A stretch of DNA of 64,000 nucleotides from Escherichia coli (GCF_022846255.1 NZ_AP025682.1), one strand, 5' to 3'. Shown: positions 1-46,675, counted from the stretch's first letter. Made by a program: numbers and translations. The notes: a model not told the origin generated them from the letters alone.

Positions 1-184
1 ACCTCGCACGTTTTGACTCATATTCTGACAACACAGCGACACCTGGGCTAATTCGAAAAACAACGTCCTGCCACCGGATGGTGATGTTAAGGCATCTGAT
101 TCGGCCTGCGCCCTCGCGTAGGCCGAATACAGGATCTGCGCAATCAACGGGTAACAAACAGTTGAGTCAATTCAGTGCGCACTT

Positions 185-1738
185 TTATTTGATATCCTTC
201 ACGCGCATACCGTTGAGCTGTTCATCCGTAATGGTGTTGCCCGCTTTGAAGTAATCAACCACCGCGTGATAAACGTAATAACCGCCCGTTGTGTTACGCG
301 CTTTCCCTTCGGTAAAGGCGGTAAAACCATCTCCACCATCAGCAAGGAAACTCTGAGTAGCAATGTGATAAACCGTCGCATCTTCAATGGGTTTGCCATT
401 CAGAGTCAGTGTGATTACCCGCTGACCAACCGGCTTGCTGCTGTCGTACTTCATTTCCAGGCCTTTCGATACCTGTAAAACGCCATTGCTTAAACTTGCG
501 CCGTGTTCCATCAGACTGCGTAATTGTTTACCCGTGAGTTCCATCGTCACCAGTTCGTTGGGGAACGGGAACGTACTGATAACGCCGCCCATCGTGATCG
601 CCCCTGCGGGGATCTCATTGCGGATACCACCAGAGTTTGTTAACGCCAGTTGGGTATTTTTACCCGCTGCTGCCAGTAAAGCGTCAGCCGCCAGGTTCCC
701 GAGGGAAGCCGATTCACCATAGGCACGTTTTAATTCAACCGGCGATTGCGCCACCGTTTGTTGCACCACTTCATCAAGCTTTTTATTCCAGCCGTCGATC
801 ACCTGTTTCGTTTGCGGATCGGGCTTCCACTCGTCAGCGTAAATGGTTTTAAGCTCGAAGTTTTTCACCGTAAAATTATGCGGCTTCTCTTTGTAGTCGA
901 GAACCAGTTTGCCCACATCAATCCCGCCGCTGTCAGTGGAGAGGATGAGCGTATTGCCGACTTTAATCGGTTCCGGCGTACCCACATGTGCATGTCCGGT
1001 GATCAAAATATCCAGCCCTTTCACCTGACTTGCCGTCTGAATATCTTTATCCAACGCGCGACGCACATCTGTGCCTCCCATACTGGACTGGCGGGCCGGA
1101 ACACCTTCATGGATCAGGGCGACGGTCAAATCAACCTTGCCTTTAAGTTCATCGATATAACGTTGTAGCCATTTAATTTCATCACGCGCCTCAATACCCA
1201 CTCGCGTGGCAGCAGATACTGTGTCATTAAAGGCAAATACACCGTGCAAACCTATAACGCCTATTTTCACACCGTCTTTTTCGATGATGGTATAGGGCTT
1301 ATCCCAGAATGATTTACTGCTGTTCTGATAAAAAACATTGCCCTGCACAATCGGGAATTTTGCCTGACTCAACTGTAATAATGTGTTGTCCCAGCCGTGG
1401 TCAAATTCATGGTTGCCTATCGTGACGGCATCAAACGGCATAGTATTCATAATATCGATAATAGCCTTACCTTTGGTCAGGCTGCTGATATATGGCCCGG
1501 TAAAATAGTCGCCCGCATCAAAAAACCATGTCGCTTTATTTTTTGCTTTTTCTTGCTTAACCAGCGTAGTGATATTTGCCCAGCCGCCAATATCCCGTTT
1601 ACCGTTCGCAATCCACGGCACTTTATAAGGCTCTACATGTGCATGGAGGTCGTTAGTATAAATAATGGTGACATCTTTGGCGCAAGCCCAGAACGGCAAT
1701 GTTAATGCGATACCCGCAGCAAGTATTTTAATTTTCAT
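185..1738 (-). CDS. secreted UshA-family metallophosphoesterase / 5'-nucleotidase, paralog 1 (ORF extends to TTG at 1744; first ATG at 1738)
   Basis: N-terminal signal peptide; calcineurin-like phosphoesterase motifs [35 protein letters not shown]; long C-terminal domain as in 5'-nucleotidases; SD-like AAGGGA upstream of ATG. Confidence 0.8.
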
Positions 1739-1797
1739 AAACAATCCCTTTCAGTGAGATAAAGGATTGCTACATTACGTTCTGAAAGACTTATTTA

Positions 1798-1813
1798 TGT
1801 GAGAGTAATCACA
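1798..1813. promoter_or_regulatory. candidate CRP binding site TGTGAgagtaaTCACA in divergent promoter region
   Basis: both half-sites match consensus TGTGA-N6-TCACA exactly; centred about 65 bp from each flanking start codon. Confidence 0.6.
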
Positions 1814-1870
1814 TCCGCAGGGGATAGTTGCCGGACAAAATCAACGACCTTGTGAAATCGTTGGTGATAT

Positions 1871-2995
1871 ATGTCGACTCTGTTTACGATTAATGCCTGT
1901 AAAACGTTCGGTTGCCGAAATTTGGGATTGGCCTCATCGGAAGATTACAGTTGGCCAGACTATAAACTGGGTTATCCGGCACTGCACTGTCGGGCATGTG
2001 GAAGTTACCCGCCGTTGTTTGACGAACAGCAATTTCGTGACTGGTTGTCAGTTCACTTATCTACTTTTGCAACTGAGAAAGGTCATTTCTGCCCGGTATG
2101 TTATGGCACAGACATGATTTGTTATGGTCACAATCCACAGGGTTCGCAACGCATTCAATGCCGTAACTGCAAAAAAGTCTGGACGCCTAAAAAATATCAG
2201 AAAGAAATTACGCATCCCCAGGCCATTGAAACCGTTCAACTGTTCATACCCTTTCAAGGGGCCAGTGCAGTACAAAAACTGTATGTTTTAGTCAGTCTTG
2301 ACGCCACTCGTGGCAACATTCTTCATCTCTCCACGAATTATACGCAACATCAGACAGGAGACAGTCTGCGGTACAGTTACAAGGGCAACACAGAACCAAC
2401 TATGCACCATCGCGATATCGTGCAGAAGGTAGATATGCGTGAAGCGCAATTCTTGCGCCGGAGCCAGTTCGATGAAATTCAGTATGGCAGTGCTGTACTC
2501 AAGCGCAACGGTAAGGGAGCCATACTACGCCCGGTTATCACGGCACACGGGCATTTCAGAATACTGAAAATCCGCTATCCAGATGTCAAAACGCATATTA
2601 TTTCACACGAATGTTTTCTAAGAGGCGCAATTATTACAGCCTGGGCAGATCAGTTCCGCCAACAACAAGGTGAACTTTGGTTCGTAGAAGAAGAAATCAG
2701 TGACAGTAACGCTGATACGCCCTGGCATTTTAAGGGAACGACATACCATGGTTGGTGGCAAAATCAGTGGCAGCGCTGGGAGCAGGGGAATAACTGCAAG
2801 ATGGTCTGCCTACTCACGGGAGCCTGCTTAGAAAGGGGCGCAAATGTTTCTCTGGCAACCAGTCGTTGTTTTATCACATGGCTGACAGACCAACACGACT
2901 TTACCCAAAGCGCGTTATTATCCGCAGGTCGCGTAACACAAATGCTGACCTCACTGGCGTTAAAATACAATGAATCGCTCACTCCATCTTGTTAG
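1871..2995 (+). CDS. zinc-ribbon protein of unknown function; second Cys cluster resembles IS1 InsA / transposase-type zinc ribbon; possibly transposase-derived
   Basis: 374-aa ORF; C-x4-C...C-x2-C and CPVC-x19-CRNC-x3-W motifs in first 100 aa; no terminal inverted repeats seen around it. Confidence 0.5.
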   Translation: MSTLFTINACKTFGCRNLGLASSEDYSWPDYKLGYPALHCRACGSYPPLFDEQQFRDWLSVHLSTFATEKGHFCPVCYGTDMICYGHNPQGSQRIQCRNCKKVWTPKKYQKEITHPQAIETVQLFIPFQGASAVQKLYVLVSLDATRGNILHLSTNYTQHQTGDSLRYSYKGNTEPTMHHRDIVQKVDMREAQFLRRSQFDEIQYGSAVLKRNGKGAILRPVITAHGHFRILKIRYPDVKTHIISHECFLRGAIITAWADQFRQQQGELWFVEEEISDSNADTPWHFKGTTYHGWWQNQWQRWEQGNNCKMVCLLTGACLERGANVSLATSRCFITWLTDQHDFTQSALLSAGRVTQMLTSLALKYNESLTPSC

Positions 2996-3114
2996 TCAAT
3001 ACACTCGACAAACGACCATAAATTAAGAGAGAGCACTACCTTTCATTTAATTAAATATATAAATGTATGACCGTGAAATATAATCATGGTCAATGTTTAA
3101 TTAATAACATTATT

Positions 3115-3130
3115 TGTTACTAAGATCACA
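3115..3130. promoter_or_regulatory. weak CRP-like site TGTTActaagaTCACA upstream of nucleotidase paralog 2
   Basis: one perfect half-site, one with a G-to-T change; about 100 bp upstream of start codon. Confidence 0.3.
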
Positions 3131-3162
3131 CAATACTTTTCTGAACTATGCTTACATAAAAT

Positions 3163-3179
3163 AAGACACGATGTGTCTT
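3163..3179 (+). terminator. hairpin aagacac-gat-gtgtctt followed by T-rich tract
   Basis: 7-bp stem, 3-nt loop, then tttatttaaa; lies between zinc-ribbon gene and paralog 2. Confidence 0.35.
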
Positions 3180-3224
3180 TTATTTAAATAATTCAACAAA
3201 TGTAACACACCCTATCCAGGAGGG

Positions 3225-4778
3225 ATGATGAAAACTGTATTTACAACATTATCAGTCATATTCGGCGTGATATTTTCTCACAGTGTTCTAGCTCAGGACG
3301 TTACTATTTATTATACGAATGACATTCACGCACATGTCAATCCGGCAAAAATCATCGCTGTTGATAAGAACAGACTTATAGGTGGTATGGCTAATATTGC
3401 AGGCATCGTTAATGAAGCGAAGAAAAAAAGCAAAGATGTGTTTTTCTTTGATGCAGGCGACTATTTTACCGGGCCGTATATCAGCACCCTGACCAAAGGT
3501 GAAGCTATTATTGATATCATGAACACTATGCCCTTTGATGCGGTGTCTGTTGGTAATCACGAGTTCGATCACGGTGTGCCCAATATGGTGTCTCAGTTAT
3601 CAAAAGCAAAATTTCCCATTCTGCTGGGAAATATCTACTACACCGATACGAATAAACCAGTTTGGGATCATCCGTGGACCATTATCGAAAAAGATGGTTT
3701 AAAGATTGGTGTGATTGGATTGCATGGCGCATTCGCTTTCTATGATACAGTCGCGGCAAAAGCACGTGAAGGCGTAGAAGCCAGAGACGAAATTAAATAT
3801 TTAAATAAAGCACTTGCAGAATTAAAAGGTAAAGTCGACATTACCGTTTTGCTAATTCACGAAGGTGTCCCGGCGCGTCAATCAAGCTTTGGTAGTAAAG
3901 ATGTGGAGCGGCTACTACAGGCAGATATTGAGACAGCTAAAAAAGTGAATGGTGTTGATGTCTTAATTACCGGTCACGCACATGTCGGAACACCGCAACC
4001 AATAAAAGTTAATAACACATTAATTGTATCTACCGATGCATACGGCACCAACATCGGAAAACTTGTGCTTGATTACAATCCGAAAACGAAGAAAATTGAT
4101 AGTTATAATGGTGAGTTAATCACCATCTTTGCAGATCAATTTAAACCTGACACCATCGTTCAAAATACTATTGATAAATGGAGTGCAAAGCTTAACAAAA
4201 TAACACAGGAAGTTGTCGGCCATTCTCCCGTAGTTTTAACACGTGAGTATGGTAGTTCCTCTTCTACCGGCAACCTTATTCTTGATGCAATGATGGAAAA
4301 AACACCTGATGCCGTTGCCGGATTTCAAAATAGCGGTGGGATGCGAGCTGATTTTCCTAAAGGCGATATCACACTGGGAGATGTTATTAGCACATTCCCC
4401 TTTAATAATGACCTCATCGAGATGGATTTGACGGGCCGCGATCTCAAATCATTGATGACGCATGCAACCAATCTAACTAACGGTGTGTTACAAGTTTCTA
4501 AAAGTGTTGCGGTTGTCTATGACAGCAAAAAACCACTCAACCAACGGTTAATCTCTTTCACCATTAACGGCAAACCCGTGGAAGATAATCAAACATATCG
4601 TATTGCCACGCACTCCTTTTGTGCCAGTGGTGGTGACGGTTTTGAAGCATTTTTGAATGGAAAAAATGTGAAAACGATACCGGGAACAACCTCGGCGGAA
4701 TCTATCATCGATTATTTCAAAAATCACAAGCCTATCACCCCAGACTTAACTAAACGAGTCATGGACGTCGCCAAATAA
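3225..4778 (+). CDS. secreted UshA-family metallophosphoesterase / 5'-nucleotidase, paralog 2 (start may be second ATG at 3228)
   Basis: signal peptide ending VLA-QDV; motifs [35 protein letters not shown]; AT-rich coding sequence. Confidence 0.8.
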   Translation: MMKTVFTTLSVIFGVIFSHSVLAQDVTIYYTNDIHAHVNPAKIIAVDKNRLIGGMANIAGIVNEAKKKSKDVFFFDAGDYFTGPYISTLTKGEAIIDIMNTMPFDAVSVGNHEFDHGVPNMVSQLSKAKFPILLGNIYYTDTNKPVWDHPWTIIEKDGLKIGVIGLHGAFAFYDTVAAKAREGVEARDEIKYLNKALAELKGKVDITVLLIHEGVPARQSSFGSKDVERLLQADIETAKKVNGVDVLITGHAHVGTPQPIKVNNTLIVSTDAYGTNIGKLVLDYNPKTKKIDSYNGELITIFADQFKPDTIVQNTIDKWSAKLNKITQEVVGHSPVVLTREYGSSSSTGNLILDAMMEKTPDAVAGFQNSGGMRADFPKGDITLGDVISTFPFNNDLIEMDLTGRDLKSLMTHATNLTNGVLQVSKSVAVVYDSKKPLNQRLISFTINGKPVEDNQTYRIATHSFCASGGDGFEAFLNGKNVKTIPGTTSAESIIDYFKNHKPITPDLTKRVMDVAK

Positions 4779-4818
4779 AATCTCATTTATCAGTCAATTT
4801 ATTTAACAAGGAATGTGA

Positions 4819-6438
4819 ATGAAAACAGCGCAGTGTACTTTACTTGCCGCAACATTGCTGACTATTTTTTCGACCTCAGTCATGGCGCAGGATGTCACGA
4901 TTATTTATACCAATGATCTTCACGCTCATGTGGATTCCTATAAAGTACCGTATGTCGCAGACGGAAAACGCGACATTGGTGGCTTTGCCAATATATCCAC
5001 GTTAGTAAAACAAGAGAAAGCCAAAAATAAAGCCACCTTTTATTTTGATGCTGGAGACTATTTCACCGGGCCATATATCAGTAGCCTGACAAAGGGCGAA
5101 GCAATAATTGATATTATGAATACCATGCCTTTTGACGCAGTATCAATCGGTAATCATGAGTTTGACCATGGCTGGGATAATGCCCTCCGACAATTAAGCA
5201 AAGCGAATTTCCCTGTTTTATTAGGCAATGTTTATCATAAAGAGAGTGAGAAACCCTTCTGGAACAAGCCCTACACCATCCTGGAAAAAGATGGCATCAA
5301 GATTGGTATTGTTGGGCTACACGGCGTATTTGCATTTAATGACACGGTCTCGGAGCTCTCTCTCCAGGGACTCGATAATGACAATAATAACCGATTTGAT
5401 AAATCTTCCGCGACCCTCAAGAATCAGGGGATTGAAGCACGTGATGAAGTGAAGTATTTGCAGCATTATATCGATGAGTTACGTGATAAGGTTGACCTCA
5501 CCGTGGCGCTGGTTCATGAAGGCGTACCGGCGCGTCAGTCCAGCATTGGCAATACAGATGTTAGACGTGCGCTGGATAAAGATATTCAAACCGCAAGCAA
5601 GGTGAAAGGATTGGATATTCTGATTACCGGGCATGCCCACGTCGGAACGCCAGAACCAATCAAAGTCGGCAACACCTTAATCCTTTCGACTGACAGTGGC
5701 GGTATCGATATTGGTAAATTAATCCTTGATGTCAACCCTACAGCTCGTACTCATAAAGTGAAGAGCTTTGAGCTGAAAACGGTTTATGCCGATGAATGGA
5801 TACCCGATCCAACCACACAAAAAGTTATCAATGGCTGGAATAAAAAACTGGCGGATCTTGTACGCCAACCAGTCGGTGAATCATCGATTGCATTAACTCG
5901 TGCCTACGGTGAGTCATCGCAACTTGGCAACCTGTTTACCGATGCAATGCTTGTCGCTGCACCGACTGCACAAATTGCGTTGATAAACTCCGGCAGTTTA
6001 CGTGCTGATATAAATGCAGGCACGATTACCTTTGGTGACATTACCAGTACATTCCCCTTCAAGAATGAACTTACTGAAATGGATCTCAGCGGTAAGGATC
6101 TGCGTAACCTACTGGAACACGGGGCATCGCTTACCAATGGCATCCTGCAAATGTCAAAAGGCGCAGAAATGCGCTATACCCTGCAGAAACCAGTAGGTCA
6201 GCGCATTGTATCTTTTAAAATTAATGGTGAAGAGATCGTTGATACGAATATTTACCATGTTGCGACTACGACTTTCCTTGCACTTGGGGGCGATGGTTTT
6301 CTGGCATTCAAAGAAGGGAAAAATGTCCAGGTCCGCGCCGGAAATAACATGTCCAATGTCGTAATCGATTATTTTAAGAAAGGCCACAAGATTACTCCTG
6401 CACAGGTAAATGAAATGCGGGTAGAAGTAAGCAAATAA
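4819..6438 (+). CDS. secreted UshA-family metallophosphoesterase / 5'-nucleotidase, paralog 3 (carries an 18-aa insertion relative to paralogs 1 and 2)
   Basis: signal peptide ending VMA-QDV; same five phosphoesterase motifs; SD AAGGAA upstream; starts 40 bp after paralog 2. Confidence 0.8.
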   Translation: MKTAQCTLLAATLLTIFSTSVMAQDVTIIYTNDLHAHVDSYKVPYVADGKRDIGGFANISTLVKQEKAKNKATFYFDAGDYFTGPYISSLTKGEAIIDIMNTMPFDAVSIGNHEFDHGWDNALRQLSKANFPVLLGNVYHKESEKPFWNKPYTILEKDGIKIGIVGLHGVFAFNDTVSELSLQGLDNDNNNRFDKSSATLKNQGIEARDEVKYLQHYIDELRDKVDLTVALVHEGVPARQSSIGNTDVRRALDKDIQTASKVKGLDILITGHAHVGTPEPIKVGNTLILSTDSGGIDIGKLILDVNPTARTHKVKSFELKTVYADEWIPDPTTQKVINGWNKKLADLVRQPVGESSIALTRAYGESSQLGNLFTDAMLVAAPTAQIALINSGSLRADINAGTITFGDITSTFPFKNELTEMDLSGKDLRNLLEHGASLTNGILQMSKGAEMRYTLQKPVGQRIVSFKINGEEIVDTNIYHVATTTFLALGGDGFLAFKEGKNVQVRAGNNMSNVVIDYFKKGHKITPAQVNEMRVEVSK

Positions 6439-6514
6439 CAAAAACTTATAATACCATTCATTCACTGGATGACATTATTTCTCTCTAAATCAACAATATA
6501 TAAGAGATATATTT

Positions 6515-7375
6515 ATGTATATAAAAAAGCACTGGATAGCTTTATCCATTCTATTAATACCTTGCATTGGAAACGCTCAGGAAATTAAAATTGATGAAAG
6601 CTCGTTACATCAAAGCTTGAATGTCATTGGTCGCACAGACTCTCGCTTTGGCCCAAGACTGACTAACGACCTCTACCCTGAATATACTGTAGCAGGAAGA
6701 AAAGACTGGTTTGATTTTTATGGTTATGTTGATCTACCGAAATTCTTTGGCGTCGGCAGTCACTATGATGTTGGGATCTGGGATGAAGGCTCACCACTAT
6801 TTACGGAAATAGAACCTCGGTTTTCCATTGACAAATTGACCGGATTAAATCTTGCGTTCGGCCCATTTAAAGAATGGTTCATTGCAAACAACTATGTCTA
6901 TGATATGGGTGACAACCAGTCATCCCGGCAAAGTACATGGTATATGGGGCTTGGTACAGATATCGACACGGGTCTACCAATTAAGCTTTCTGCCAATATA
7001 TACGCCAAGTATCAGTGGCAAAACTATGGTGCCGCTAATGAAAATGAATGGGACGGATATCGATTCAAAATAAAATATAGCATCCCTCTTACAAATTTAT
7101 TCGGAGGGCGATTGGTATACAATAGTTTTACTAACTTTGATTTTGGCTCCGATCTTGCGGACAAGTCACACAATAATAAACGAACCAGTAATGCTATTGC
7201 TTCAAGCCATATCCTTTCCCTTCTATATGAACACTGGAAATTTGCATTTACACTACGTTATTTTCACAACGGTGGACAATGGAATGCGGGAGAGAAGGTT
7301 AACTTCGGAGATGGTCCATTTGAATTAAAAAATACAGGATGGGGAACCTATACTACTATTGGTTATCAATTTTAA
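6515..7375 (+). CDS. Tsx-like nucleoside-specific outer-membrane channel (Tsx/OmpK family paralog)
   Basis: 286 aa, signal peptide, C-terminal Phe; blocks such as [37 protein letters not shown] and [26 protein letters not shown] recalled from Tsx. Confidence 0.7.
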
Positions 7376-7472
7376 ATTAGGTGACATTTTAGATATTGTT
7401 ACTTAATGTCATTTTGTAATTGTCATTAATAACTTCACCATTCACTCTGTTACTTCATCGCTCAACACAAAA

Positions 7473-7492
7473 GCCCCCTTATTACCGGGGGC
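7473..7492 (-). terminator. hairpin gccccc-N8-gggggc with T-rich tract on the minus strand
   Basis: inverted repeat followed on minus strand by ttttgtgtt. Confidence 0.35.
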
Positions 7493-7556
7493 ACTGACCA
7501 AAGGCAAAATGACAATCAATCACCACTTCCCCAGGAAGAGGTTTCGGGGTGACAAC

Positions 7557-7583
7557 AAAAGCTGGCAACTGCCAGCTTTTGTT
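7557..7583. terminator. bidirectional intrinsic terminator between Tsx-like gene and metL
   Basis: 8-bp stem agctggca/tgccagct flanked by an A-run and a T-run. Confidence 0.6.
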
Positions 7584-7592
7584 CAATAATCA

Positions 7593-46175: not shown

Positions 46176-46675
46176 GCCGGATGCGGCACAAGTGCCTTAT
46201 CCGGCCTACAGGTCAGCAACAGTTGTAGCCCTGATAAGACGCGACAGCGTCGCATCAGGCATTGATTGCCGGATGCGGCACGAGTGCCTTATCCGGCCTA
46301 CGGGTCGGCAATAGTTGTAGGCCTGATAAGACGCGACAGCGTCGCATCAGGCATTGATTGCCGGATGCGGCACGAGCGCCATATCCGGCCTACGGGTCGG
46401 CAATAGTTGTAGGCCTGATAAGACGCGACAGCGTCGCATCAGGCATTGATTGCCGGATGCGGCACGAGTGCCTTATCCGGCCTACGGGTCAGCAACAGTT
46501 GTAGGCCTGATAAGACGCGACAGCGTCGCATCAGGCATTGATTGCCGGATGCGGCACAAGTGCCTTATCCGGCCTACGGGTCGGCAATAGTTGTAGGCCT
46601 GATAAGACGCGACAGCGTCGCATCAGGCATTGATTGCCGGATGCGGCACGAGTGCCTTATCCGGCCTACGGGTCG
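46176..46675. repeat. tandem array of about 5.4 copies of a 92-bp BIME unit (two inverted REP elements per unit) between rhaA and rhaD
   Basis: unit starts at 46176, 46268, 46360, 46452, 46544 and 46636 with exact 92-bp period and a few point differences. Confidence 0.9.

Follow-up and report, generated by a model that had tools for sequence, protein, structure and literature searches.

A derived 20-residue loop insertion in one group of enterobacterial 5'-nucleotidase paralogs from the metF-metL island of Escherichia coli

Introduction

The closest described relative of the enzyme analyzed here, which we call paralog 3, is the putative 5'-nucleotidase c4898 of E. coli CFT073, known from the structural-genomics entries 3IVD and 3IVE. 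Both proteins belong to the same subfamily and genomic island and agree in their domains and catalytic motifs (66% identity; sequence E-value of 4e-230), c4898 being essentially paralog 1 of this island, but c4898 has a short AATRV turn where paralog 3 contains 25 residues. We found neither a publication nor activity data on c4898 in the literature. Human ecto-5'-nucleotidase CD73 (PDB 4H2I, 6S7F) has the same two-domain fold as paralog 3, and in alignment the two proteins agree in their metal ligands and in the Arg residues of the C-domain. It differs in being a GPI-anchored eukaryotic dimer of ~24% identity with a short loop at the insertion site, and it has no counterpart of the family-specific GVPARQSS loop after the His ligand. 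UshA (PDB 1USH, 1HP1), the UDP-sugar hydrolase/5'-nucleotidase of E. coli and a periplasmic enzyme with an open/closed domain rotation, shares superfamily and fold with paralog 3, but is only ~20% identical and shows ~3 extra residues at the insertion site in a profile alignment.

The island itself has been described in a 2026 comparative paper as genomic region GR 31 (metL..metF) of strain BEN2908 and other ExPEC strains, containing a Tsx homolog and three UshA-domain ORFs of 1620, 1551 and 1554 bp (PMC12928451). Its authors propose coordinated nucleoside processing and transport in a paper without experiments on these genes (PMC12928451), and a transcriptome table lists the island tsx gene c4894 as induced on tosR overexpression in CFT073 (PMC5956150). 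The former study is the only paper on the island that we found, and it calls the paralogs hypothetical enzymes (PMC12928451); our literature search found no functional studies of these nucleotidases. A 60-nt insertion in the 1620-bp ORF is neither mentioned nor analyzed there (PMC12928451). We analyzed this insertion in a stretch of 64,000 nucleotides of E. coli DNA (the window). From the comparisons, it is a natural, derived and selectively kept insertion of 20 amino acids, and by analogy to CD73 it most likely represents a specificity or cleft-lid loop, a functional assignment that we hold with middling confidence.

Gene content of the island and properties of paralog 3

Positions 1-12,500 of the window comprise an accessory island of the metF-metL site and, after it, metL, metB, metJ and yiiX. 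The island contains three paralogous genes of the 5'-nucleotidase family, a gene for a Tsx-like porin and a gene for a hypothetical protein with a Zn-ribbon (Table 1). Paralogs 2 and 3 probably belong to one operon. The RefSeq entry of paralog 3 is named "bifunctional metallophosphatase/5'-nucleotidase", and by inferred numbering the gene would be c4895 of CFT073.

Table 1. Features of the metF-metL island and of the insertion, in window coordinates.
Feature	Position	Strand	Characteristics
Paralog 1, insert-less, c4898 type	185..1744	-	RefSeq start gives 517 aa; structures 3IVD/3IVE with uridine, cytidine
374-aa hypothetical protein, weak IS1/IS1595-type Zn-ribbon N-terminus, divergent neighbor of paralog 1	1871..2995	+	possible regulator
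Paralog 2, 517 aa, insert-less	3225..4778	+	40-nt gap upstream of paralog 3
Paralog 3, 539 aa, predicted periplasmic 5'-nucleotidase/metallophosphatase family, insert-bearing	4819..6438	+	Pfam PF00149 and PF02872; RefSeq WP_001374863.1
Non-alignable segment, codons 179-203 of paralog 3 (ELSLQGLDNDNNNRFDKSSATLKNQ)	5353..5427	+	contains the net 60-nt (20-codon) insertion; 5353-5406 are its first 54 nt
Tsx-like nucleoside-specific outer-membrane channel	6515..7375	+	Pfam PF03502, 2e-69; NCBIfam PRK15106, 488 bits vs. 311-bit cut-off

Pfam searches detected Metallophos and 5_nucleotid_C domains in all three paralogs. In paralog 3, Metallophos (6e-11) covers residues 27-275 with the insertion inside, followed by 5_nucleotid_C (1e-36), so that the protein has the two-domain architecture of the UshA-CD73 superfamily, PF00149 plus PF02872. 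With the UshA equivalog model NCBIfam NF007109 it scored 157.4 bits against a cut-off of 600, which none of the three paralogs reached. Judging from these profiles, paralog 3 is a member of the UshA/CD73 superfamily but no UshA ortholog. The preliminary description of this DNA had proposed a UshA model as structural reference, which needs to be replaced by the paralog-1-like c4898 structures 3IVD/3IVE.

All dimetal and catalytic motifs of the superfamily (DxH, GD, GNHE, H and GHxH) are present in paralog 3, and the respective metal-binding or catalytic residues D33, H35, D80, N112, H113, H233, H272 and H274 were invariant in alignments of 59 and 14 sequences, indicating that the catalytic machinery is intact. 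In a profile alignment, their counterparts are D36, H38, D85, N117, H118, H220, H243 and N245 of CD73, a numbering that agrees with the CD73 papers cited below. The N-terminus of paralog 3 consists of a hydrophobic segment ending in VMA, followed by QD, and residues 3-19 form a lone helix in the AF2 model described below.

In several genera, the Zn-ribbon hypothetical protein is a conserved divergent neighbor of nucleotidases of the paralog-1 type and of the sister clade (1871-2995 in the window; L007:7583-8851; L008:7597-8865). It is 374-422 aa long with a weak InsA-like N-terminus and matched no Pfam family above threshold; it may act as a regulator or be the fragment of a transposase that has been domesticated.

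Position and size of the insertion

The preliminary description had reported an in-frame segment at positions 5353-5406 that starts with GAGCTC, and reading frame and translation bear this out: the segment is in frame with the ORF of paralog 3, begins with GAGCTC at its 5' end and encodes ELSLQGLDNDNNNRFDKS. Protein alignments confirmed that paralogs 1 and 2 have no such insert. The size was in need of correction, since the net difference amounts to 20 codons (60 nt) instead of 18 codons (54 nt). This is evident from the lengths of the proteins (539 aa vs. 519 and 517 aa for paralogs 1 and 2) as well as from the DNA homology arms of paralogs 1 and 3, which break at 5351/5427 in paralog 3 and at 1199/1215 in paralog 1 and enclose 75 unaligned nucleotides in paralog 3 (5352-5426) vs. 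15 in paralog 1 (1200-1214). The blocks FNDTVS and IEARDE had also been described as contiguous in paralogs 1 and 2, but these proteins actually contain AATRV and AKARE, respectively, between FNDTVS and (G)IEARDE. Because of these intervening residues, the exact indel boundaries are ambiguous in the local protein alignment, in which TVS-ELSLQGLDNDNNNRFDKSSATLK-NQG of paralog 3 is opposed to TVS-AAT-RVG. Searching the whole window with the insert by tblastn and blastn-short yielded no second copy or donor beyond chance.

Structural placement of the loop

An AF2 model of paralog 3 calculated from the 59-sequence alignment reached a mean pLDDT of 85 and a pTM of 0.84, with values below 50 pLDDT for the insert residues 178-202. 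Its best Foldseek match was 3IVD (E=3e-85, TM 0.88/0.94), and it was closer to the closed conformation of CD73 (TM ~0.75) than to the open one (~0.55); model and matches thus show the fold of the superfamily. In a profile alignment with CD73 (~24% identity), whose posterior confidence is moderate near the site, S178 of paralog 3 coincides with Leu184, and the insertion takes the place of Ser185-Asn186-Pro187. In closed CD73, the carbonyl group of Leu184 lies 3.9 Å from adenine N6 and has been proposed to affect base discrimination (PMC8677862), and high-affinity inhibitors occupy a pocket that is formed by Ser185 and Asn186 (PMC8403083).

In paralog 3, the insertion enlarges a normally tight turn of 4-5 residues in the N-terminal metallophosphatase domain, which leads from the FAFNDTVS helix to the GIEARDE strand. 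By alignment, this turn corresponds to the Leu184-Asn186 loop, which in CD73 points to the nucleobase across the inter-domain cleft on closure over the substrate.

A second loop was observed at residues 235-244 (window ~5521-5550), right after the metal ligand His233. It is specific to the subfamily, invariant across the homolog alignment, and corresponds to a 16-residue gap in CD73 in the profile alignment. Apart from the insert and this loop, no internal stretch of at least three residues falls under a pLDDT of 50 in the model. To judge from its conservation, the second loop may serve a separate function.

Proposed function of the loop and genomic context

The preliminary description had suggested that the loop "could alter substrate access", which is plausible by analogy to CD73. 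The loop would change either the nucleotide-type substrates accepted by paralog 3 or the closure of its two domains. In this way, a nucleotide-scavenging module with several paralogs would cover a more diverse set of substrates; the module, which also encodes a Tsx-like outer-membrane channel, would yield nucleosides. A more far-reaching version, to which we assign a rather low probability, regards the loop as a new recognition or lid element and paralog 3 together with the Tsx-like channel as a dedicated outer-membrane-to-periplasm scavenging unit acquired horizontally by ExPEC-type E. coli. As part of this reading, the enzyme might act outside the range of 5'-NMPs that is typical of the family, e.g., on bulkier derivatives such as dinucleotides, NAD-type or cyclic nucleotides, and in a further variant the DNDNNNRFD core of the loop might bind Ca2+, rendering the enzyme metal-gated.

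The insert-bearing gene adjoins a tsx-like gene in all five genomic contexts examined. Both genes occupy the metF-metL site in E. coli and Citrobacter enshiensis, and they lie together at a different locus in Enterobacter chuandaensis. In E. albertii (L006:3004-10611), the module comprises four nucleotidase paralogs (518, 522, 520 and 536 aa), tsx and the Zn-ribbon gene, again with the insert-bearing gene next to tsx, whereas the most divergent ortholog (L002) and its tsx-like gene occur alone as a two-gene pair by folD. The E. albertii module lies elsewhere on the chromosome, close to genes of the kdsA/chaA type. Four paralogs at another site show that the module is mobile and still expanding.

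This consistent neighborhood would also fit a protein-protein contact surface, by which the loop might dock to the Tsx-like channel or to another paralog. We regard such a function as unlikely. The hydrophilic character, conservation and predicted flexibility of the loop would be in line with it, as would the arrangement in the insert-less sister clade (L007, L008), where a single nucleotidase gene is divergently oriented to the gene for a 422-aa Zn-ribbon hypothetical protein and no tsx gene is found within 9 kb. However, paralog 2 is linked to tsx equally tightly and does not carry the insertion, gene adjacency is evidence at the operon level only, and the alignment with CD73 puts the site at the cleft and not on the outer face.

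A further alternative, which we consider less likely still, is that the Asp/Asn-rich core D186-N-D-N-N-N-R-F-D194 forms an EF-hand-like Ca2+ loop stabilizing or regulating the N-domain. The PROSITE pattern PS00018 describes a loop of 12-13 residues with ligands at positions 1, 3, 5 and 9, a bidentate D/E at position 12, one of LIVMC at position 8 and a hydrophobic residue at position 13. By inspection, D186-N-D-N-N-N-R-F-D-K-S-S-A fits this pattern at positions 1, 3, 4, 5, 6, 7 and 9 and fails at 8, 12 and 13. Conservation among the orthologs agrees with the ligand positions, as position 1 is an invariant D, position 3 is D/N, position 5 is N/S and position 9 is D/S, with an invariant F at position 8 and a variable position 4. 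On the other hand, the F at position 8 is outside of LIVMC, position 12 (S/A/G) offers no bidentate D/E and position 13 (A/S/E) is not hydrophobic; Pfam reported no EF-hand match in paralog 3, and AF2, which models no ions, shows no ordered structure for the loop. A specificity or cleft-lid loop is the reading that we prefer.

Selection on the insertion

We aligned the codons of five orthologs, namely those of the window, C. enshiensis (L005), Enterobacter chuandaensis (L003), E. albertii (L006) and the divergent ortholog L002. Among the first four, which represent three genera, the 25 codons of the segment showed dN values of 0.02-0.07 at dS values of at least 1, corresponding to omega values of 0.01-0.06, compared to 0.03-0.10 for the rest of the gene. 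Relative to L002, dN of the insert was about twice the gene average, yet it stayed far under the divergence at synonymous sites, which is saturated. An alignment of 14 sequences showed 14 of the 25 positions to be invariant (L180, S181, G184, L185, D186, N187, R192, F193, K195, S196, L200, K201, N202 and Q203), and the length of the insert was 20 residues in all 15 carriers. From these substitution patterns, the insert is under purifying selection like the remainder of the gene.

The constraint on omega, length and residues therefore speaks both against a role at the DNA level and against a tolerated, functionally neutral surface insertion. The latter may seem compatible with a hydrophilic loop in a low-confidence region of the AF2 model and with the linkers of 7-19 residues which are tolerated at the same site in other lineages of the superfamily survey (see below). 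We nevertheless judge it to be very improbable, because omega values as low as those of the remainder of the enzyme were obtained at saturated synonymous sites and a neutral loop would drift in length and sequence, whereas the observed one is fixed in length and invariant in 14 of its 25 positions. Conservation proves constraint and not a specific role, and a partner- or metal-binding loop would be kept equally well as a specificity or cleft-lid loop.

The insert DNA also contains a Fur-box-like sequence (GATAATGACAATAATAACC, 5374-5392), which matches the consensus in 15 of 19 positions. We rejected a DNA-level element at this site and regard the likeness as probably coincidental, since it is produced by the Asp/Asn codons and the synonymous sites vary freely among the orthologs.

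Distribution and origin of the insertion

Of 5,426 complete E. coli genomes, 658 contained paralog 3 at full length and aligned in one piece (95.9-99.9% identity), always with the insertion; the island occurs in ~12% of the complete genomes. The metF-metL locus of complete E. coli genomes exists in three states: empty, short (paralog 1 and the Zn-ribbon hypothetical gene) or long (with paralog 2, paralog 3 and tsx in addition). Paralog 1 is present in 1,843 genomes and the long state in 658. Judging from these three states, paralog 2, paralog 3 and tsx act as one block, a module that is added to the locus separately.

Alignment with database homologs, which the preliminary description had recommended for seeing whether the insertion is shared, showed that exactly the 15 closest of the best 120 homologs (74-99% identity) carry an insert, equal in length and similar in sequence, and that the other 105 have none. 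The carriers belong to E. coli, E. albertii, Citrobacter and Enterobacter; the insert-less homologs comprise the paralog-1-like and paralog-2-like groups and proteins from Cronobacter, Atlantibacter, Providencia and Vibrio. The insertion had been called unique to paralog 3, which holds true within the window, but outside of it the same 20-aa insert occurs in every paralog 3 ortholog found in other strains and genera. The orthologs from Citrobacter, Enterobacter and E. albertii are 80-87% identical at saturated synonymous divergence.

In neighbor-joining trees for which the columns of the insert had been left out, its carriers were monophyletic (100 of 100 bootstraps) and formed the sister group of an insert-less clade (P0016-P0035; also 100 of 100), with paralog-1-like, paralog-2-like and more distant sequences branching outside of both. 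Together with its distribution, this indicates that the insert is a fixed, length-invariant indel of a bootstrap-supported clade and not a chance feature. We also surveyed the linker at this site in 202 domains from 150 representatives of the superfamily by counting the residues between two anchor residues. The linker consisted of 3-6 residues in 190 of the 202 domains, and the 25 residues of paralog 3 represent the longest one. The insertion is derived, given that its clade branches within insert-less relatives and that a linker of 3-6 residues is normal. Monophyly, insert-less relatives and the short superfamily linker thus substantiate the earlier proposal of a lineage-specific loop insertion in the catalytic N-domain. 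It arose a single time, in the common ancestor of the paralog 3 type, one ortholog group within the Enterobacteriaceae, and has been kept since by purifying selection.

The reverse case, in which the segment is ancestral and paralogs 1 and 2 have lost it, had been named by the preliminary description as the outcome that would overturn its view; it found no support and is of negligible probability, as phylogeny and linker survey reject it: it needs many independent and identical losses of 20 codons, given an insert clade nested among insert-less clades and outgroups, and the short linker is the superfamily norm. An engineered (cloned) insertion, for which the SacI site GAGCTC at the start of the segment might speak and which had not been excluded before, is equally close to impossible, being refuted by the 658 natural genomes and the orthologs of other genera with their saturated synonymous sites, by the lack of a second flanking restriction site and by the hexamer itself, which merely represents Glu-Leu codons and is not kept in the orthologs (GAACTC in C. 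enshiensis, GTTCTC in L002).

As to the source of the inserted codons, we compared the insert, taken as LDNDNNNRFDKSSATLKNQG, with the preceding 20 codons. Both end in QG, and 22-25 of 60 nucleotides were identical in register, compared to a null expectation of 16.7 +/- 3.5; by BLOSUM score, the pair ranked among the top 0.4-3% of windows. This hints weakly at a tandem duplication of the preceding 20 codons.

One apparent exception to the distribution of the insert is P0015, a protein with a paralog-1 backbone and the insertion, which is encoded in an E. coli draft genome (L011:3398-5011, GCA_001520995.1) at the position of paralog 1 by metF. Its residues ~100-250 are paralog-3-like including the 20-aa insert, and the remainder is 97-100% paralog-1-like. 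The sequence is most simply explained as a gene-conversion mosaic between the inverted paralogs; a misassembly is possible as well, as the contig stops where paralog 3 should lie.

Significance

If the loop changes substrate choice, this would explain why three or four near-identical, predicted periplasmic nucleotidases are kept in an island that is carried, among others, by the ExPEC strains BEN2908 (PMC12928451) and, as inferred, CFT073. The loop would then represent a case of natural specificity engineering at the very loop exploited by drug designers in human CD73. Natural controls are at hand in the insert-less sister enzymes, the solved paralog-1 structure 3IVD and P0015 as an apparent loop transplant. 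Should it have no such role, the loop is simply an ordinary, lineage-specific feature of an enzyme family that is already annotated. We regard the insertion as a modest lineage-specific variant of a known enzyme family, for which a role in specificity is plausible by analogy.

Additional observations in the window

Among the 5,426 complete E. coli genomes, the best match to paralog 1 of the window reaches 99.0% identity, compared to 99.9% for paralog 3. The history of the island may differ between its two ends, e.g., by recombination. At positions 46286-46609, chance-level tblastn matches revealed three close DNA stretches encoding the near-identical peptide ALSGLRV[G/S]NSCRPDKT, which probably represent a short dispersed or tandem DNA repeat of the REP-like type.
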